From NCBI GenBank assembly GCA_021325275.1, contig JAJPHL010000032.1, positions 165,082 to 229,081 on the forward strand: a stretch of DNA of 64,000 nt, given 5' to 3'. A program made the position numbers and the translations under genes. The DNA comes from Terriglobia bacterium. Lineage in GTDB: Bacteria; Acidobacteriota; Terriglobia; JAJPHL01. Below the pieces are notes generated by a model that did not search any database, had not been told where the DNA came from, and saw nothing but the letters and a program-made list of their open reading frames with translations. How positions within the stretch are numbered: the stretch's first letter is position 1; each line of letters starts with the position of its first letter. Of the stretch, positions 1,926 to 57,027 are shown piece by piece.

Positions 1926-2932
1926 ATTTTTTCCTGTACCAACTGCGCCATCGCACGGATGAACGCCGGAGAATCGTTGAGCCCTTCGGCCATCGCGAAT
2001 CGCTTGATACCCAGCGACAACGCCAGGTCGCGCGCGTCGTGCGCGATTTCTTCGAGCGTCTCGATGTGATCCGATACAAACGCAATCGGCACCACCAGCA
2101 GATTCTTGGCGCCCGCCGCGGCCCGCTCGCGGATCGTCGTGGTCAGCGACGGCTGCAACCAGCGGCCTGGTCCGACTTTGCTTTGATAGCAAATACGGTG
2201 CGGATGCGGCCAGCCGTGAAGCTCGCGGCCTCGTTCGAGCGTGAGGCGCGTCGTCTCGGCCACTTGTGCCGGATACGGATCGCCCTTTTCCGATAGATTC
2301 GCGGGTGTCCCGTGCGCGCTGAAGATCAATTCCACTGTTTCACCTGACGTCTCGCCGGCCGGAAATTGCGTCAGCGCCTCGGCGATCCGCTCCACTTGAG
2401 CTTGAATATACGGCGCGTAATTGTGAAATTCGGAAATCGTCTGGAGCGGCACACCGTTTTGGCGAAAGTGGCGACGCCATTCGTTCAAACTGGACCCGGT
2501 GGTGGTCTTCGAGTACTGAGGATACAGCGGCAGCAGCAAGATTCGGTCAAAATGTTGCGCGCCGACCGCCGCCACTACGTCCTCGGTGAGCGGATGCCAG
2601 TAGCGCATCGCCACAAAGACGCGCGCTTGGTCGTTGAGCGTCGCGCGCAGCTCGCGTTCCAGCGCTTCGGCCTGGCGGCGCGTGTTGTTGTTCAGCGGCG
2701 ATCCTTGGAATTTGCGGAACAGTTGGCCGTAGTGATCCGCGACCTTCTTGGCGCGATTCGCAGCCACCAGCCGCGCCAGCGGCTCGCGGGCCAGTCGGGC
2801 GAAGGGGAAATCGATGATATCGGGATCGCGAAAGAGGTTGTAGAGGAACGGCTCGATCGCTTCGGGAGTATCCGGGCCGCCGAGTTGTAGCAGGACAACG
2901 GCAAGCCGCTCCCGGTAAGTCGAAAAATCCAT
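1913..2932 (-). CDS. hemH: Ferrochelatase
   Basis: N-terminus MDFSTYRERLAVVLLQLGGPD... The overall architecture and the C-terminal HIETLEEI region are typical of HemH. The ORF-track start at 3031 is upstream of the conserved N-terminus, so the internal ATG at 2932 is the likely start. Confidence 0.8.
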   Translation of the reverse strand: MDFSTYRERLAVVLLQLGGPDTPEAIEPFLYNLFRDPDIIDFPFARLAREPLARLVAANRAKKVADHYGQLFRKFQGSPLNNNTRRQAEALERELRATLNDQARVFVAMRYWHPLTEDVVAAVGAQHFDRILLLPLYPQYSKTTTGSSLNEWRRHFRQNGVPLQTISEFHNYAPYIQAQVERIAEALTQFPAGETSGETVELIFSAHGTPANLSEKGDPYPAQVAETTRLTLERGRELHGWPHPHRICYQSKVGPGRWLQPSLTTTIRERAAAGAKNLLVVPIAFVSDHIETLEEIAHDARDLALSLGIKRFAMAEGLNDSPAFIRAMAQLVQEKISRR

Positions 2933-3078
2933 GAAGAACCAATGTAGCACGGCGGCCGCGCGCCACCTAGTCTGCACTACTTTAGGGCACGCCTGGGGTG
3001 TCCGGGCAACCGCCCCCAAATCCTGTTTCAAATCGGGCGGATTCGGTATAATAGCCCTGCCTGGGAGGACGTCGACCT

Positions 3079-4095
3079 ATGCCCAATCTCACCGTGCGCG
3101 TGATGGAGGATCTCCCGGTCCCACGCGATCAAGTTCAGCGCCGCCGCGGCGACCTGCTGCAGCAATTCATGCAGGTAAATAAGGAACTGTGGCTGATCCT
3201 GACGGTTTTTGCGATCGCCTTTGTCGTAAACCACGTGGTCAGCTCGCAGCGTTTGACGCTGAGTTTCTACACGCTACCCACGCTGTTTTCCGCCTACTTC
3301 TTCGGACGCCGCCACGCCGTGATGACCGCGATTTTCTCGGGCATGGTGGTGGCCGTCGTGGCCTACACCAATCCCACGCTCTTCGAGCCGCAGGTGACCG
3401 CGCCGTTCGATCGCTGGTTCGATATGGGCGTTTGGGCGGGATTTTTGACGCTCACCGCCTATGCGATGGGCACCCTCTACGAGAGCAAAGAAAAACATAT
3501 TGCCGAATTACGCGATACGTATCAGGGAATTCTGCTGATTCTCCAGCAGTTCATTTCCAAGGATAAGTACACGCAAAACCATTCCTATCGCGTTTCCGTT
3601 TACTCCGCGAAGATCGCGGCGTGCTGCGGACTGAATCGCGACCGCATCGAGGACGTGCGCACCGCCGCCTTGTTGCACGATATCGGCAAGCTCGATATCA
3701 GCCGCGACATCCTCTATAAGGCCGCCAAGCTCAGCGACCGGGAGTTCGAGGAAATGAAGACGCACGTGTCGCGCGGCGTGGATTTCCTGGCGCCGGTGGG
3801 CGGATCGCTCAAGCGCGTGCTGCCGATCATCCTGGCGCATCACGACAAGTTCGACGGTACCGGATATACGCCGGCGTCCGGCGAAAATATTCCCTTCGAG
3901 GCGCGCATCATATCTGTCGCGGATGCATACGATGCGATTACCAGCGACCGTCCGTACCGCAAGGCTTCCACGCCGTTCGAGGCGCGCGACATCATCGTGA
4001 AAGGCGCGGGATCGAGCTTCGACCCTCAGGTGGTCCGCGCGTTTGAGATCGCCTTCAGTCGCGGCGAGATGGAAGTTCCCGAGGTAATGATCTAG
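3079..4095 (+). CDS. HD-GYP domain protein (c-di-GMP phosphodiesterase family) with N-terminal transmembrane segments
   Basis: HD motif (LLHDIGKL) and a HHDKFDGTGYT motif, a GYP variant that reads GYT. There are about 4 N-terminal hydrophobic helices. GGGAGG RBS. A TATAAT box lies at ~3041. Confidence 0.7.
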   Translation: MPNLTVRVMEDLPVPRDQVQRRRGDLLQQFMQVNKELWLILTVFAIAFVVNHVVSSQRLTLSFYTLPTLFSAYFFGRRHAVMTAIFSGMVVAVVAYTNPTLFEPQVTAPFDRWFDMGVWAGFLTLTAYAMGTLYESKEKHIAELRDTYQGILLILQQFISKDKYTQNHSYRVSVYSAKIAACCGLNRDRIEDVRTAALLHDIGKLDISRDILYKAAKLSDREFEEMKTHVSRGVDFLAPVGGSLKRVLPIILAHHDKFDGTGYTPASGENIPFEARIISVADAYDAITSDRPYRKASTPFEARDIIVKGAGSSFDPQVVRAFEIAFSRGEMEVPEVMI

Positions 4096-5286: not shown

Positions 5287-5750
5287 ACACGAACGCACGC
5301 GCGGTCGTAATGGGCGCGGCGTCAGGCGCGGCGATGCTGGCTTGTCTGATCGTCGGCGCGACGCGTGCCGGCATGCCATGGGAATGGCCGATCCGTTGGA
5401 TCTTTGCGCTGCTCGGCGCCGCTCCTGGGCTGATTTCTGTCGGCCAAGCCCACGGGGGATTGAGCACGCCCTCGTGCATCGCGATCGGGTTGGCGATTCA
5501 CGCCATTATTTCCACTTTGCTCGCCCGGCTCTTCCTGCTGCTTGTTGCGCACTTCAAAAAGCCTTATCGGGCTCCGGCCGGATTGCTCTATGGCGCAATC
5601 CTTTGGGCGATCATGACGTACGCGCTGCTGCCGATGGCGGATGGCGTGATGGCGGCGCGTGTGCAACTCATCCCACAGGCGTTTCTCATCGCGAATCTGG
5701 TTTTTGGAACCGTGCTGGGCGCGTGCGCTACACTAGTTCGAGGTGCCTGA
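5283..5750 (+). CDS. Hypothetical integral membrane protein (about 4 TM helices)
   Basis: Hydrophobic helices throughout. Start codon ATG at 5283 overlaps the upstream stop (ATGA), consistent with co-translation with the 4876 gene. Confidence 0.5.
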   Translation: MNTNARAVVMGAASGAAMLACLIVGATRAGMPWEWPIRWIFALLGAAPGLISVGQAHGGLSTPSCIAIGLAIHAIISTLLARLFLLLVAHFKKPYRAPAGLLYGAILWAIMTYALLPMADGVMAARVQLIPQAFLIANLVFGTVLGACATLVRGA

Positions 5751-7914
5751 ACCAAAGCTGGAGTTCAAGGGCGGCCGGCGATATCTCGCGCTGGGACTAT
5801 TTCTAGTCCTGGCCGTGCTGATCGTGTGGCAAGTCTCCTTTAAGGTTGGGATCAGTCCCGCGAGTTCCGAGCAGACCATCCTACTGTTCTTTCTATCGAC
5901 GCTGGTGGGCCTGGCGTTTCTGATTTTCGGGTTCATTCTCTCGCGCAATCTCATCAAGCTATTCGTCGAACGCCGCGCGAATCTGCTGGGATCGAAGTTC
6001 AAGACAAAACTTGTGATCGGCGCGCTGGCGCTTTCATTGCTTCCGGTGTCGCTCCTTTTCTATTTTTCCTACTTGTTGATGAATCGATTCGTGATCCGCG
6101 TGTTCAATCAACCGTTCGCCAGCATGGAAACGCAGGCGCGCTCGATTGTCGCGGAAGTGGGCTCGTTTGCCGAGCGCGAGGCGGAAGCGGACGCCTTGGC
6201 CGTGTCGCGCGGGCCGATGGGCGACGCGATTCGCGCCGGTGACGTCGATGGAGTACGTCGATTGATGGCCGTGGAAGCGCAAGGCGAAGGTGTCGATTAC
6301 CTCACCGTCGAAACACCGAGCGGCAACCTGGGATTCTTCAGTACCTCAGGCGTCGACATCGGCCCCGGCCTGGCGCGCGAATTGCCCGCCGACGAGCGCC
6401 GGACACGGCGCCCGCTGCACTTGCAGGCGTCTGCGGGCGGCAGCGATTACGCCGTGGCGATTATCCCGATTGTTTCACCAAATGGCGGTCCGGTGGGATG
6501 GATCATCGCCGCCGACCGCTTGCCCGATCGACTCACAAAAAGCTTGGCCGAGATGTCGCGCGATCAGGAGAATTACAGGCAGCTTTTCTACGAGCAAAAA
6601 AGCGTCCGCACATTTTTCTTGCTGGAAATGGCGCTCGTAACCGTGCTGCTTCTCGTCGCCGCGACGTGGGTGGCTCTGTTTTTGTCGAAGCAAGTCACAG
6701 TGCCGATCGAAGCACTCGCCGAAGCGACGCATGAGGTCAGCGTTGGGAACCTGGGATATCGCATCAAAGTGCGCGCAACCGACGAACTCGGCGTGTTGGT
6801 GCGTTCGTTCAACGACATGGTGGGCCAGCTCGAGGAATCGCGCATGGAATTGGAGCGTCGCCGTCGCGAGACCGAAGCGATTCTCGAAAGCATTCCCACG
6901 CCGGTGATTTCACTTTCGCGCGACCGCCGCGTGATCCGCGTGAATCCTGCGGTGGAACGAATGTTCGGTCCGCAGCGCGCCGCCGCGCCCACGTTGCGCG
7001 ACTTGCTGCCGGCCGAGGAACTGCGCGACGTCGATCACTTACTGCGCCGTTCGCTCCGGCAGGGTTTCGCCACTTCACAACTCGATTTGTCCACGCCGCG
7101 CGGCAAGATGAGCGTGGCGATGACGGTGTCAGCGCTGCAGAGCGGTCCTGCCGGAGTGCCGGTGTCGTCGGACATTGCGTACATCGTCGTCGTGGAAGAC
7201 CTTTCCGACTTGATCCACGCGCAACAAGCCGCGGCGTGGCAGGAAGTGACGCGGCGTGTGGCGCATGAAATCAAGAATCCGCTCACGCCGATCGCGCTGT
7301 CCGCCGAGCGCATCCGTCGCCGGTTGGAAACGATGAGCGCCACGATGCCCGATGCGGATCGCACCGAGGGCATGCAAGTGATCGCCGATTGTTCGAACCT
7401 GATCAACCAAGAAACCGAAGCGTTGAAGACGTTGGTGGACGAATTTTCGCAGATGGCGCGCTTCCCGAAGGCCGAGCTGAAACCGGAGTCGCTGAATTCG
7501 ATCGTGGAAAGCGCGGTGGCGGTTTTCGACGGCCGCCTCGACGACATCGAAGTGCGTCTTGATCTCGCGCCGGGCTTGCCGCTGGTGAATGTCGACGCCG
7601 GACAACTGAAACGCGTGGTGGTGAACCTAGTGGACAACGCCGCGGAGGCGATGGAACCGTGTTTGTTCAAGGAACTTCGCATCTCAACAGACATGCGCGG
7701 CGAGACGGTGGAGTTGGCCGTCGCCGACACGGGTCCCGGCGTCGACGCGGAGACGAAGGAAAAACTTTTCCTTCCGAATTTTTCGACCAAGAAACGCGGG
7801 ACAGGTTTGGGCTTGGCGATCTGCAGCCGCATCGTCGCGGATCATCGCGGCAGCATCCGCGTAGAAGAAAATGATCCGGTGGGGGCGCGCTTTATACTGG
7901 AACTTCCTGCATAG
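5743..7914 (+). CDS. ntrY: NtrY-like sensor histidine kinase (TM-HAMP-PAS-HisKA-HATPase)
   Basis: N-terminal TM helices, a HAMP region (LGYRIKVRATDELGVLVRSFNDMVGQLEES), a PAS region, an H-box (VAHEIKNPLTPI), and N/G1/G2 boxes (VVNLVDNAAEAM, DTGPGV, GTGLGLAI). GTG start at 5743. Confidence 0.75.
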   Translation: MPEPKLEFKGGRRYLALGLFLVLAVLIVWQVSFKVGISPASSEQTILLFFLSTLVGLAFLIFGFILSRNLIKLFVERRANLLGSKFKTKLVIGALALSLLPVSLLFYFSYLLMNRFVIRVFNQPFASMETQARSIVAEVGSFAEREAEADALAVSRGPMGDAIRAGDVDGVRRLMAVEAQGEGVDYLTVETPSGNLGFFSTSGVDIGPGLARELPADERRTRRPLHLQASAGGSDYAVAIIPIVSPNGGPVGWIIAADRLPDRLTKSLAEMSRDQENYRQLFYEQKSVRTFFLLEMALVTVLLLVAATWVALFLSKQVTVPIEALAEATHEVSVGNLGYRIKVRATDELGVLVRSFNDMVGQLEESRMELERRRRETEAILESIPTPVISLSRDRRVIRVNPAVERMFGPQRAAAPTLRDLLPAEELRDVDHLLRRSLRQGFATSQLDLSTPRGKMSVAMTVSALQSGPAGVPVSSDIAYIVVVEDLSDLIHAQQAAAWQEVTRRVAHEIKNPLTPIALSAERIRRRLETMSATMPDADRTEGMQVIADCSNLINQETEALKTLVDEFSQMARFPKAELKPESLNSIVESAVAVFDGRLDDIEVRLDLAPGLPLVNVDAGQLKRVVVNLVDNAAEAMEPCLFKELRISTDMRGETVELAVADTGPGVDAETKEKLFLPNFSTKKRGTGLGLAICSRIVADHRGSIRVEENDPVGARFILELPA

Positions 7915-7945
7915 GGTTGCTGGTTGCTGGTGCTGGTTGCCGGTT
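7915..7945. repeat. Tandem heptamer array (TTGCTGG)n; left inverted repeat of the four-helix-bundle cassette
   Basis: ggttgctggttgctggtgctggttgccgg follows the ntrY stop directly. Its reverse complement recurs at 8323..8349 and at 39527..39563. Confidence 0.85.
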
Positions 7946-7956
7946 TGGCCCGACTA

Positions 7957-8367
7957 ATGGCTAAAGGATTCCGAGACCTCGTCGCTTGGCAGCGCGCGAT
8001 GGCGTTGGTGCTCGAAGTGTATAAGGTGACGCATGGGTTTCCGCGAGAAGAAGTCTTCGGACTTTCAAGCCAACTTCGGCGTGCAGCTGTTTCGGTCCCG
8101 AGTAACATTGCAGAGGGACAAGGTAGATCGACTCGGGGTGAATTCGCGCACTTTCTCGGTCACGCGCGAGGGTCGCTCGCGGAAGTAGAGACGCAACTCG
8201 AGATCGCGAAAGGACTGGGTTTAATCAAGCATGAGGACTTCGAGAAACTGATGAAGCTGGTCTCCGAAACCGGCCGCCCTTTGCTCGGTCTCACGGACGC
8301 GATCCGCCGACGGTCGACCTCGAACCAGCAACCGGCAACCAGCAACCCCGCGCGACCAGCCCAATGA
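7957..8367 (+). CDS. Four-helix-bundle protein (TIGR02436 / '23S rRNA intervening-sequence protein' family)
   Basis: Highly characteristic N-terminus MAKGFRDLVAWQRAMALVLEVYKVTHGFPREEVFGLSSQLRRAAVSVPSNIAEGQGR...FLGHARGSLAEVETQLEIAKGLGLI. The C-terminal tail (TSNQQPATSNP) is encoded by the right-hand heptamer repeat. Confidence 0.8.
   Translation: MAKGFRDLVAWQRAMALVLEVYKVTHGFPREEVFGLSSQLRRAAVSVPSNIAEGQGRSTRGEFAHFLGHARGSLAEVETQLEIAKGLGLIKHEDFEKLMKLVSETGRPLLGLTDAIRRRSTSNQQPATSNPARPAQ
8323..8349. repeat. Heptamer array (CCAGCAA)n; right inverted repeat of the four-helix-bundle cassette
   Basis: aaccagcaaccggcaaccagcaacccc is the reverse complement of the 7915..7945 array. Confidence 0.85.
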
Positions 8368-9719
8368 AAAAGCGGATATTAATCGTCGACGACGAAAAAG
8401 GCATTCGGCAATCCTTGACGGGTGTCCTCGAAGACGAGGGCTACCAGGTGAAAGCCGTCGCCGGTGGGGACGCGTGTCTCGAACAGTTGGAGAGTGATCC
8501 TCCGCAACTCGTTCTGCTCGACGTTTGGCTCAAAGACCTCGATGGACTCGACGTGCTCGAGCGAATTCGCAAACGGCCGCTCGCTCCGCAGGTGGTGATG
8601 ATTTCCGGTCACGGCACGATTGAGACCGCTGTGAAAGCCACCAAACTCGGCGCGTTCGATTTTCTTGAGAAACCTCTTTCGATCGAGAAGACCCTGCTGG
8701 TGGTGAAAAACGCGCTGGCGCATCAGTCGCTCGCGGACGAAAACCTGCGACTGCGCGAACAGATCGCCTCGCGCTGCGTAATCATCGGAGAGAGCATTCC
8801 GATGAAGGCGCTGAGGCAGCAAATGGAGTTGATGGCGCCGACCAATGGGCGGGTTTTGATTTACGGAGAGAGCGGCACGGGCAAGGAACTGGTGGCGCGC
8901 GCCATCCACATGCAAAGTCCGCGCGCGGCGCAGCCGTTTGTGGAAGTGAACTGCGCGGCGATCCCCGAGGATTACATCGAAAGCGAATTGTTCGGGCACA
9001 TGAAGGGCTCGTTGCCCGGCGCGCAGGAAGACAAAGCCGGAAAATTCCAAAAGGCCGACTCCGGCACACTCTTCCTCGACGAAGTCGGCGACATGAGTTT
9101 GAAGACGCAAGCGAAAGTGCTCCGCGCGCTCGACGAGCAGCGCTTCGAACCCGTGGGGTCGCATACCAGCGTCACCATCGACGCGCGAATTATCGCCTCG
9201 ACGAACAAGAACCTCGACGAAGAAATCACGCGCGGCAATTTCCGCGAGGACTTGTTTTATCGCTTGAATGTCGTACCCTTCTACGTCCCGCCGCTGCGCG
9301 AGCGCCTGGAGGACATTCCGCTGTTGGCCGAGCATTTCACGCGCGAATTCAGCGAGTCGTACGGACGCCGGCCCAAGCAATTCGCACCCGAGGCGTTGGA
9401 AGCGCTGCGTCAATACTCCTGGCCGGGCAACGTGCGCGAGTTGCGAAATCTGGTGGAACGCATCGTGATCATGAATCCGCAGCAGCGGATCGAGCGAAAG
9501 AATATTCCCGCGCTGATTTCGCGGACGGCGTCGCGCGGAGCGGGCGGCTTCAGTTCGCTGCAAGAAGCGCGTGCCGCGTACGAGCGCGATTTCATCATCA
9601 AGAAACTGGAAGAGTGCGGAGGTAACGTAAGCCGCGCCGCCGAAGCACTGGGACTCGAACGCAGCCATCTCTACCGCAAGATGAGGTCGCTCGGTCTACC
9701 GTCGAGAGAACAGGGATGA
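8364..9719 (+). CDS. ntrX: NtrX-like NtrC-family response regulator (REC + AAA+ + HTH) with a degenerate GAFTGA motif
   Basis: REC domain, Walker A (GESGTGKELVARAIH), and a C-terminal HTH. The region that would carry ESELFGHEKGAFTGA instead reads ESELFGHMKGSLPGA. Confidence 0.75.
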   Translation: MKKRILIVDDEKGIRQSLTGVLEDEGYQVKAVAGGDACLEQLESDPPQLVLLDVWLKDLDGLDVLERIRKRPLAPQVVMISGHGTIETAVKATKLGAFDFLEKPLSIEKTLLVVKNALAHQSLADENLRLREQIASRCVIIGESIPMKALRQQMELMAPTNGRVLIYGESGTGKELVARAIHMQSPRAAQPFVEVNCAAIPEDYIESELFGHMKGSLPGAQEDKAGKFQKADSGTLFLDEVGDMSLKTQAKVLRALDEQRFEPVGSHTSVTIDARIIASTNKNLDEEITRGNFREDLFYRLNVVPFYVPPLRERLEDIPLLAEHFTREFSESYGRRPKQFAPEALEALRQYSWPGNVRELRNLVERIVIMNPQQRIERKNIPALISRTASRGAGGFSSLQEARAAYERDFIIKKLEECGGNVSRAAEALGLERSHLYRKMRSLGLPSREQG

Positions 9720-36267: not shown

Positions 36268-36350
36268 AAACGCAACCGCAGATAAACGCAGATGAACGCC
36301 GACAGATTCCCGTTCTATCTGCGTTGATCTGCGTCCATCTGCGGTTGCGT
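36268..36350. terminator. Second copy of the CGCAGATNAA-unit palindromic element, between convergent genes
   Basis: aacgcaaccgcagataaacgcagatgaacgcc / loop / ctatctgcgttgatctgcgtccatctgcggttgcgtt. Same unit structure as the element at 1845..1925. Confidence 0.5.
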
Positions 36351-39526: not shown

Positions 39527-39563
39527 ATCGTCTACCAGCAACCAGCACCAGCAACCAGCAACC
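39527..39563. repeat. Solo copy of the (CCAGCAA)n heptamer array in a divergent intergenic region
   Basis: accagcaaccagcaccagcaaccagcaaccgg is the same repeat family that flanks the four-helix-bundle cassette. Confidence 0.8.
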
Positions 39564-56016: not shown

Positions 56017-57027
56017 TCAGGCGTGACCCGAAGAAGCCTGACCCGAAAAGGCCTGACCCGAAAAAGGCATGACCCGAAAGAGGAGGTAGCCAGGCATACG
56101 TTCCACGCGGAGGCCTGGGACCTCAATGATTCCCTTCCCGGAATGGGCGGCTTTTGGGTGAGCAAGCCCGCGAATGCGCTCTACATGATCGAACTCCAGG
56201 CGGAACCGACCGCCTTTCACCAAGGCGACGGCGGCACGAACCACTCGCCGTTGTTCGGCCTCACTTAATTGGACGAAGTTTTCGAGCAGAAGTTTCCGGC
56301 CCTCCGGCGCCTCGACAATTACGCGCAAGGAGAGCGCCTCGATATGTTCTTGCCAAAACGCTTCGTCGGCGCGAGCTACTTCGGCCGTGTGACCCAGGAT
56401 ATTGACAATGTTCGGGTTATAGTCGCGCTCCAGTTCGGGGATCAGCGCATGGCGCAGGCGATTGCGTAGGAAGCGCGGGTCGCTGTTTGTGGGATCTTCG
56501 CGCCACGCGAGTCCGCGGGACGCGGCCCAGGACCGCAGGGCTTCGCGGCGTGTTGTCAGCAGGGGACGCACGATCGCACCTTCTTCGATTTCCGGCAAAA
56601 TGCCCGCGAGGCCCGCAGGGCCGCCGCCGCGAAGGAGTCGCGCCAGGACCGTTTCGGCTTGATCGTCCGCGGTATGCGCGGTGGCGATTTTTCCGATTGC
56701 GTTTTGTCGCACAAGCTGGGAGAAAAACGCGTAGCGGTCGTGGCGGGCACGCGCTTCGACGTTCGATTCATGCGCGGACTCTGCGGCGGCGCCGAAAAAC
56801 TGGATGTTTCGTGACGCCGCGAGCGTTGCGACGAACTCGGCGTCGGCATCGGACTCCGCGCCGCGCAGGCGATGGTTGAAATGCGCGACGGATACGACGA
56901 TGCCCAGGCGGTCGCGCGCTTCCAGCAGCAATTCAAGCAGCGCGACAGAGTCCGCGCCGCCGGAAACGGCGGCGGCGACGCGATCGCCGGGCCGAAAGAA
57001 ACGCTCGGGATGGAAAACAACACCCAC
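56017..57027 (-). CDS. tilS: tRNA(Ile)-lysidine synthetase
   Basis: PP-loop SGGADS (AVSGGADSVALL). The C-terminal 15 codons are encoded by a tandem repeat. Confidence 0.85.
   Translation of the reverse strand: MGVVFHPERFFRPGDRVAAAVSGGADSVALLELLLEARDRLGIVVSVAHFNHRLRGAESDADAEFVATLAASRNIQFFGAAAESAHESNVEARARHDRYAFFSQLVRQNAIGKIATAHTADDQAETVLARLLRGGGPAGLAGILPEIEEGAIVRPLLTTRREALRSWAASRGLAWREDPTNSDPRFLRNRLRHALIPELERDYNPNIVNILGHTAEVARADEAFWQEHIEALSLRVIVEAPEGRKLLLENFVQLSEAEQRRVVRAAVALVKGGRFRLEFDHVERIRGLAHPKAAHSGKGIIEVPGLRVERMPGYLLFRVMPFSGQAFSGQASSGHA
56021..56082. repeat. 15/16-bp tandem repeat x4 (GCCTGACCCGAAAAG-like) forming the 3' coding end of tilS
   Basis: gcgtgacccgaagaa gcctgacccgaaaag gcctgacccgaaaaag gcatgacccgaaagag encodes ...PFSGQAFSGQASSGHA. 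Confidence 0.85.

Follow-up and report, generated by a model that had tools for sequence, protein, structure and literature searches.

The intervening sequence (IVS) of the Coxiella burnetii 23S rRNA is a 428-nt element that encodes a protein of the S23p family (PF05635); a 28-bp stem, interrupted by one mismatch and one bulge, closes the element and is cut by RNase III, and 3 or 4 tandem GACAGAT heptamers, their number varying between strains, stand directly before the ATG (PMC4990558). We describe here an element of comparable construction, which is located between an ntrY-like and an ntrX-like gene of a Terriglobia bacterium, in a 64,000-nt stretch of contig JAJPHL010000032.1 that we refer to as the window; our genome-level statements about the source organism cover these 64 kb. 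The element, which we call the cassette, consists of a gene for a four-helix-bundle (4HB) protein and 2 mutually complementary arrays of heptamers, one at each end. IVSs of 23S rRNA that contain an open reading frame (ORF) are also known in Leptospira.

To judge from sequence, the ORF-containing 23S rRNA IVS of Coxiella is the closest described object, and the window element appears to be like it except in host site and repeat sequence. The 2 elements share the protein family (S23p being PF05635), a length of about 430–480 nt, and terminal inverted repeats that form a stem, of about 26–28 bp with one mismatch and one bulge in the IVS and of about 25 bp with one G.U in the window. They also share a 5' arm of tandem heptamers just before the ATG, with a Shine-Dalgarno (SD) sequence that is weak. 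In contrast, the host site in the window is a junction between protein-coding genes of an operon, not helix 45 or helix 25 of 23S rRNA; the unit is GGTTGCT and not GACAGAT; and its ORF, unlike the decaying one of Coxiella, is intact and has been fitted to the start of the gene downstream. Excision by RNase III has been shown for the Coxiella IVS, and may be expected of the window element from the length of its stem.

Heptamer arrays have also been described in Xanthomonas (GGGAATC) and Nostoc (GGGGAYT), where they comprise 2–26 units, mostly about 4, in intergenic positions between co-oriented genes, at an average of 28 nt from the upstream ORF, and form 70–75 "convergent" inverted pairs per genome; for Xanthomonas the count is 186 arrays and 70 convergent pairs (PMC4692102). 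The left array of the window is likewise intergenic, tandem, placed at the end of the upstream ORF and part of a convergent pair. Unlike the window arrays, those of Xanthomonas and Nostoc were read as G-quadruplex formers, without a link to 4HB genes (PMC4692102). Most of them, again unlike those of the window, are solo or enclose no ORF, and the window unit GGTTGCT contains no G3 tract that would confer G-quadruplex capacity, only GG. Units of the cyanobacterial short tandemly repeated repetitive (STRR) sequences, which Mazel is said to have described in 1990, reportedly include CCCCAGT, TTGGTCA and CAACAGT and would fit the RGT core discussed below.

Two further comparisons can be made. The accessory protein bAvd, a pentamer that binds nucleic acid and reverse transcriptase, has a 4HB fold homologous to that of the window protein; the latter differs in scoring below the cut-offs of the Avd models and in having neither an adjacent reverse transcriptase nor template/variable repeats, and we know of no description of Avd genes bracketed by heptamer arrays. 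MITEs (miniature inverted-repeat transposable elements) and repetitive extragenic palindromes with their mosaic elements (REP-BIME) resemble the cassettes in their short terminal inverted repeats, their intergenic or operon-internal positions, and their ORF-less derivatives that share the termini. The arms of the cassettes, however, are tandem arrays and not unique terminal inverted repeats, their sequence differs between lineages, and the cassettes have no target duplication and no known transposase partner. The literature that we searched nowhere treats 4HB genes with heptamer flanks outside rRNA in general terms, or such cassettes in operons as a class, which does not prove that no description exists.

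The cassette at the ntrY-ntrX junction

A preliminary description of the window, prepared from the letters without database searches, had placed a 4HB gene of the TIGR02436 type between ntrY and ntrX, and profile searches confirmed this assignment. The predicted protein matched PF05635 (23S_rRNA_IVP) with E = 4e-39 and 133.4 bits (cut-off 33.8), TIGR02436 with 125.6 bits (cut-off 24), and NF008911 with 137.4 bits (cut-off 137); the crystallized Xanthomonas protein XCC0516 (PDB 2GSC) matched it over residues 8–120 with E = 4e-26. The motif (G)xxRxxxSxxxNxxE, quoted for the PF05635/TIGR02436 family in PMC3936711, is represented in the segment QLRRAAVSVPSNIAEG by R42-x3-S46-x3-N50-x2-E53, with Q instead of G at the first position, and all residues that are invariant in an 18-sequence alignment are kept. 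The 4HB domain spans residues 6–113, ending near 113–118, and the remainder of the protein is a tail.

The ORF starts with ATG at 7957 and stops with TGA at 8365–8367, the stop overlapping the ntrX ATG as ATGA. Orthologs of the ntrY-like gene adjoin genes named NtrX in the JGI annotation. Between the ntrY-like and ntrX-like ORFs there are 449 bases, which hold the left heptamer array, the 4HB ORF and, within the 3' end of that ORF, the right array; the 4HB ORF is the only one in the cassette, and the cassette reads in the same direction as the ntrY-ntrX operon. Third-position GC content (GC3) is 0.61 in the 4HB gene and 0.73–0.76 in the neighboring genes, and the codon composition of the gene is thus foreign to its neighborhood. 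A promoter/terminator scan found no promoter-like or terminator-like site inside the cassette, PADLOC gave no match inside it, there was no Rfam match in 7700–8600, and no SD sequence was visible for the ntrX-like gene.

The claim that inverted heptamer arrays bracket the gene was borne out by 2 listings of repeats. Tandem Repeats Finder (TRF) reported period-7 arrays at 7915–7945 (4.6 copies) and 8323–8347 (3.6 copies), and inverted arms were found at 7914–7931 and 8331–8348 (18 nt, 94%) and at 7931–7945 and 8330–8344 (15 nt, 100%). The window repeats are not due to chance, because the motif GGTTGCTGGTTGC, with up to 2 mismatches allowed, has 14 occurrences in the window where 1.7 would be expected, a count reached by 0 of 100 shuffles. 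The predicted duplex of the 2 arms comprises about 25 bp, among them one G.U, as well as one bulge, and has -56.6 kcal/mol; when the right arm was shuffled, the duplex had -32.2 ± 4.7 kcal/mol, and -47.1 at best. The terminal stem closes the cassette in minimum free energy and centroid RNA folds alike. It begins on the last base of the ntrY stop codon (TAG at 7912–7914, with G at 7914 as the first paired base) and ends 15 nt short of the ntrX ATG. The pair is convergent, with the G/T-rich RGT arm lying 5' on both strands, and the left array begins at the stop codon.

As for the right array, which the preliminary description took to supply the C-terminal tail of the protein and to run into the ntrX start, the first part held in a narrower form and the second did not: the array encodes only residues ~121–129 (NQQPATSN), and 15 non-repeat bases separate it from the start, the tail STSNQQPATSNPARPAQ being the translation of the right arm and of these 15 more bases. 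The predicted 4HB reading frame is shown to pass through the right arm and to end on ATGA at the ntrX start.

A third array of the window heptamer, at 39534–39563, is solo. In reverse complement, 26 nt of it are exactly equal to the left arm, including an irregular 6-nt unit, and its duplex with the left arm (-65.2 kcal/mol) is predicted to be stronger than that of the left arm with its real partner. The intergenic region that holds it is divergent, and the ATG (39572) of a DUF6807 gene follows the array after 8 nt. It may be a footprint, a landing pad or a site of pairing in trans.

Heptamer arms in other 4HB loci

The 120 nt that precede the ATG were set against the 200 nt surrounding the 3' end of the gene in 80 family loci from GTDB genomes, mostly of Terriglobia but also of Planctomycetota, Chloroflexota, Verrucomicrobiota, Bacteroidales, Desulfobacca, Bacillota and Nitrosomonas. 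For the best inverted repeat that joins the 2 flanks, the median score was 38, as against 15 (maximum 22) in windows shifted 600 nt downstream, and 64 of the 80 loci scored above that maximum. The arms are nearly always period-7 arrays, with a median length of 31 nt (~4.4 units) and a median span of 477 nt between outer arm ends. The unit varies by locus (AGTTGTC, CAGTAGC, CAGTGGG, AGGGAAT, GAGTACC and others), and each left arm complements its own right arm. The arms therefore co-vary within a locus, as is seen from same-locus scores (median 38) compared with cross-locus scores (median 16); 52 of the 80 loci exceed the cross-locus 95th percentile. The C-terminal tails of the homologs are 7-residue periodic (TENREPRTEN, GNRQPATGN, SLVPNSQSLVPN), a mark of 7-nt DNA repeats read in 3 frames.

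The same array-4HB-array layout was found in 24 of 27 loci on viral contigs, with period 8 in a few cases, and on cyanobacterial plasmids, with (AGTCAGG)n arms in Nostoc punctiforme, Trichormus variabilis and Nostoc ATCC 53789, and (GGGTGTA)n arms in Calothrix and N. punctiforme; (GGGGAAA)n arms also occur in Nostoc ATCC 53789. With these counts, the preliminary view of a discrete cassette that has its own terminal repeats gains a wide base: the layout is the typical architecture of the 4HB family, and the window cassette is no one-off. The notion of one heptamer dialect per genome was rejected, Nostoc sp. ATCC 53789 having both AGTCAGG and GGGGAAA arms, and dialect tracks protein lineage weakly (Spearman 0.24). 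On the plasmids of Nostoc sp. ATCC 53789 (L245, 371–1049) and N. punctiforme (L246, 780–1420), 4HB genes are split or truncated by inserted sequence, and the 3' heptamer array of L246 is present in 2 copies, which suggests nested insertions.

When 46 units were aligned in phase, the first position was A in 41 of them, the second was G in 45 and the third was T in 34; the 3 best-conserved columns of shuffled-unit controls had means of 42, 31 and 25, so that only the second and third core columns are clearly above the control. The window unit represents a GGT variant of this core. AGT was present in 30 of the 46 units of 5' arms and in one of the 46 reverse complements. Since the layout is symmetric under reverse complement, AGT marks the handedness of the hairpin (the G/T-rich arm being 5' on either strand) and not the direction of the ORF, and we rejected polarity relative to the ORF for this reason.

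The cassettes are placed between genes in a regular manner. In 48 of 58 loci the gene upstream reads in the same direction as the cassette (binomial p = 5e-7); in 34 of these 48 the beginning of the left arm falls -24 to +13 nt from the stop codon of that gene, and a co-directional downstream gene begins 0–31 nt past the right arm in 28 of 38. Host junctions include clpP|clpX, queD|queE, HlyD|MacB and ychF|ZIP. Two published cases fit the pattern, each reported without a cassette reading: a 23S_rRNA_IVP gene between cmr3 and cmr2 (PMC3936711), and XCC0516 of Xanthomonas, where a GGGAATC array lies 6 nt past bccP and overlaps the XCC0516 start (PMC4692102 supplement).

Alignment to orthologous loci, which the preliminary description had proposed as a means to define the empty site, was informative. 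We retrieved ntrY-ntrX junctions of relatives through their NtrX proteins, whose identities to that of the window are given here. Three other assemblies of the same population (L207–L209; 100%) carry the identical cassette. In L082, L083, L084 and L205 (84–85%) ntrY and ntrX overlap by ATGA with nothing in between, and L249 (72%) has a 12-nt spacer. L210 (83%) contains a different 4HB cassette with arms (GGAGGGG)n and (CCCCTCC)n, and L247 (76%) contains a third, with arms (GGGTTAGC / GGTTAGC)n. Two further junctions have lone heptamer arrays and no 4HB gene: that of L206 (78%), where a 44-nt spacer is a lone array of five CRGTAGG units (2957–3000), and that of L248 (73%), where a 150-nt spacer (1351–1500) begins with five CAGGYGY units. 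Because 4 orthologous loci have the ATGA overlap and nothing between, the window cassette is an insertion, and the comparison shows that it was inserted precisely at a junction predicted to be translationally coupled. Some of the relatives are without the gene, and where it is present it comes with repeats; this differs from the old, repeat-free arrangement that the preliminary description had set against an insertion.

The 4HB proteins of the window, L210 and L247 are 53–55% identical in pairs, and their 3 heptamers are different; random members of the family have median identities of 49–56%, which is the same level. In the NtrX tree, occupied and empty states of the junction are interleaved. 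From this identity level and the interleaving of states, repeated independent occupation or replacement at ntrY|ntrX seems likelier than one ancient insertion. In the window and in L210 alike, ATGA joins the end of the 4HB frame to the start of ntrX. At L210 (100–156) the ntrY frame, having lost its stop, enters the (GGAGGGG)n left arm and gains a Gly-rich tail; this locus shows that heptamer arrays can turn into host-gene coding sequence too. The junction of the closest relative, L081 (90%), is occupied by an unrelated 143-nt multi-hairpin element (2022–2164), with termini GGAGTGCGG...CCGCACTCC and 5 small hairpins centered on GCTTGC/GCAAGC; it has neither a 4HB gene nor heptamers.

The ychF|ZIP junction, with ychF on the 5' side and a ZIP transporter gene on the 3' side, carries a 4HB cassette in 10 species (L022, L024, L028, L042, L051, L058, L066, L069, L072 and L077, at ~2900–3450 in each), and these cassettes belong to at least 3 lineages, ~52% identical to each other. 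Orthologous cassettes at this site have 4HB proteins that are 74–77% identical at a flank identity of 82–83%; a second cassette lineage has 52–54% at a flank identity of 84–86%. This is a second recurrently occupied junction.

The converse situation, that of one cassette lineage in unrelated surroundings, was also observed. With flanks that have no detectable similarity, 4HB proteins are 92% identical between L052 and L060 and 78–81% identical among L045, L052, L060 and L068 (all with AGGGAAT-type arms), 84% identical between L035 and L037 (CAGTAGY and CAGTTGT), and 71% identical between L009 of Terriglobia and L056 of Chloroflexota (YAGTGGG). Together with the different lineages found at one junction and the GC3 value, the same lineage with the same heptamer in unrelated flanks supports the view that gene and arms move as a unit. 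The mobility that the preliminary description had suspected thus finds its support in comparison among loci, from the lineages 78–92% identical in unrelated flanks and the 3 cassettes at one junction.

Arrays also occur apart from the gene. ORF-less hairpins or solo arrays of a cassette's own unit lie within a few kb of it at L001, L045 and L065. A metagenome scan for GGTTGCYGGTTGCYGG gave at least 120 (GGTTGCY)n loci, on contigs that do not evidently include that of the window; among the matches listed, about one-third of the arrays are within long ORFs, ORF-less hairpins with loops of 16–150 nt are present, and the proportions resemble those reported for Xanthomonas. The marks of a transposon or MITE, namely a target-site duplication (sought by comparison with empty sites) and a cognate transposase, are absent from the cassette. 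We also dropped an integron cassette with attC and a CRISPR-like array, as there is no integrase, there are no spacers, and a single gene lies between the arms.

Interpretation of the cassette

We favor, with moderate confidence, an explanation in which the window element is an IVS-type mobile cassette, that is, a PF05635 gene that travels with 2 terminal, complementary heptamer arrays whose arms fold in the transcript. The cassette would be read through from the ntr promoter within the ntrY-ntrX message; its arms would pair in the RNA into a helix of about 25 bp, with the ORF looped out; and the helix would bring the ntrY stop, which lies at the foot of the stem, close to the ntrX start, ~15–16 nt past it. 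A helix of about 25 bp is a substrate for bacterial RNase III. By its length, and by the precedent of the Coxiella 23S rRNA IVS, the predicted stem would be long enough to be cut by this enzyme. An ORF that is looped out or cut out would keep the host genes functionally adjacent, and this would explain how cassettes survive in operons and even in rRNA. Translation of ntrX, which in the relatives with an empty site is presumably coupled to that of ntrY, would now be coupled to that of the 4HB ORF. The 4HB protein, its family residues being intact, is predicted to be a helical bundle of the Avd-like homopentamer type, and would most probably bind nucleic acid, perhaps the arrays that flank its gene, to the benefit of the cassette.

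Several observations weigh against this explanation. The fold of the whole cassette (471 nt) is not significantly more stable than that of shuffles (z = -0.95), only the terminal stem standing out. Over 59 loci, arm mismatches comprise 46 A.C and 48 G.U, with no bias, and there is accordingly no sign that a wobble-tolerant selection on the sense RNA keeps the arms paired; the lack of a G.U excess means that complementarity may be kept at the level of the DNA, through conversion of hairpins or cruciforms or through recognition by a protein, and the conserved AGT core and fixed handedness point likewise to the DNA. With regard to mobility, no convincing target-site duplication was found at ntrY|ntrX junctions when they were compared with empty sites, the window cassette contains no transposase, 4HB being its sole ORF, and it has no close paralog in the protein database, where the next-best 4HB protein is 63% identical. 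Among the matches listed in the metagenome scan, a 4HB gene was found in 5 of 120 (GGTTGCY)n loci, and in 4 of them it was no more than 150 nt away from the array; 4HB cassettes are far fewer among these matches than lone arrays and ORF-less hairpins, and arrays thus exist without the gene too.

The principal competitor, to which we give a minor yet appreciable share of belief, takes the arrays to be terminal recognition sites in the DNA, to which the 4HB pentamer, or else an enzyme that belongs to the host or acts in trans, would bind for insertion, excision or gene conversion, with the RNA stem as a by-product. The near-equality of G.U and A.C mismatches is what would be expected if a DNA process keeps the arms complementary, and a plain hairpin needs neither an AGT/RGT core nor a fixed handedness (30/46 versus 1/46). 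The median arm of 31 nt, or ~4.4 units, is near the 5 units that a pentamer might contact; ORF-less hairpins and solo arrays with the heptamer of a nearby cassette, including that at 39534–39563, look like non-autonomous copies; and the solo arrays of Xanthomonas have no strand bias relative to genes (PMC4692102). Yet the 4HB protein is a helical bundle of ~120 aa without a catalytic domain, and target-site duplications are not seen at the ntrY|ntrX junctions. The ORFs, moreover, are strongly co-oriented with host transcription (48/58) and the arms lie directly against the stop and start codons of the host genes, which fits a constraint from RNA or translation, and cutting of such a stem by RNase III has been demonstrated in Coxiella (PMC4990558).

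That the cassette has been domesticated and serves its host, by tuning NtrY/NtrX through the stem (as a site of processing, decay or attenuation) or through the 4HB protein as a 2-component partner, seems to us very unlikely. Five of the distinct lineages that we examined do have a 4HB cassette or a heptamer array at ntrY|ntrX, which could reflect a benefit, and the 4HB frame fits the ntrX start in the window and L210; against this, the closest relatives are without the cassette, the occupants of the junction are of unrelated lineages (53–55% identical), the same cassettes occur in unrelated operons, and the protein matches no defense or regulator family beyond PF05635 and, weakly, Avd. We consider it similarly improbable that one ancient insertion at ntrY|ntrX was followed by fast divergence of the 4HB gene, drift of the repeats and repeated precise losses, with no recent mobility. 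This would agree with the patchy occupation on both sides of the NtrX tree, with the faster evolution of orthologous 4HB genes than of their flanks (83% versus 96%, for example), and with the lack of a close paralog of the window cassette, but true orthologs keep 74–77% identity at flanks of 82–83%, while the ntrY|ntrX cassettes are at the random-member level; the exact ATGA overlap would need to have been restored by loss in 4 loci; and identical cassette lineages occur in unrelated contexts. We give almost no credence to the proposal that the 4HB protein is the Avd accessory protein of a decayed diversity-generating retroelement. PF05635 and Avd have homologous folds (PMC10053308), and there is a weak similarity to bAvd, with 24 bits for PF22296 and 28 bits for NF033474; both scores, however, are far under the cut-offs (40 and 80 bits, respectively), and no reverse transcriptase is adjacent, the neighbors being a kinase, a regulator, a PilS-like kinase, DUF4142 and DUF6789.

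The mobile, IVS-type explanation can be widened into a proposition that we advance tentatively and on balance doubt: that PF05635 genes with inverted heptamer arrays form one large mobile cassette class that crosses phyla, in which the 4HB pentamer recognizes or helps to generate its cognate arrays, ORF-less hairpins and solo arrays are non-autonomous derivatives or footprints, and certain junctions such as ntrY|ntrX are recurrent landing sites. The ORF-bearing 23S IVSs, STRR sequences and the "G-quadruplex" heptamers of Xanthomonas and Nostoc would then be facets of this class. There is, in our view, a substantial probability that the class behind these cassettes is a mobile system in its own right, as yet unrecognized. 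What the 23S rRNA IVS protein family does has been unexplained since 1993, and so have the overrepresented heptamer repeats of bacteria (STRR reported in 1990, those of Xanthomonas and Nostoc in 2015). Our data tie the two together, in that the 4HB gene as a rule comes enclosed by a pair of complementary heptamer arrays, tightly placed between the genes of operons; the insertions in rRNA look like rare, visible cases of the cassette, and the window element would be an IVS-type element in an mRNA operon, with an architecture that is common in the family and seemingly has not been spelled out before. Annotators should be warned that 4HB genes are probably passengers, and not members, of cas, acc, clp and ntr operons.

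Coordinates and other repeats of the window

Positions of the cassette, its host genes and the solo array are collected in Table 1.

Table 1. Features of the ntrY-ntrX locus and the solo heptamer array in the window
Feature	Position	Strand	Basis
ntrY-like sensor histidine kinase gene, 5' host gene	5743..7914	+	Pfam HAMP, PAS, HisKA, HATPase_c
Left (5') arm, heptamer array (GGTTGCT), ~4.6 units including one 6-nt unit, RGT-core type	7914..7945	+	TRF, inverted repeats, folds
4HB protein gene, 136 aa	7957..8367	+	PF05635 / TIGR02436
Right (3') arm, heptamer array (AACCAGC), ~3.6 units, complementary to left arm	8323..8348	+	TRF, inverted repeats, folds
ntrX-like sigma-54 response regulator gene, 3' host gene	8364..9719	+	receiver, sigma-54 AAA+, Fis helix-turn-helix
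Solo array of the window heptamer (third array)	39534..39563	-	TRF, motif search, duplex energy

The window contains repeats of other periods as well. An ORF-less hairpin with a 10-nt unit is present in 2 copies, at 1845–1921 and 36277–36343, in the form of (ACGCAGATAA)~3, a loop and (TTATCTGCGT)~3; it is built on the same principle as the heptamer arms, with another period, and the copy at 1845–1921 lies directly past the end of a gene and is followed by a run of T. At 1262–1308, a 15-nt unit, GCGGGCCAATGAAAC, is repeated 3.1 times, the start-codon region of a lipoprotein-like ORF being triplicated. Finally, 4 direct repeats of ~15 nt (TGACCCGAAAAAGCC) at 56019–56083 stand directly upstream of an SD-like site, GAGGAGG, and these may constitute an operator-type repeat.

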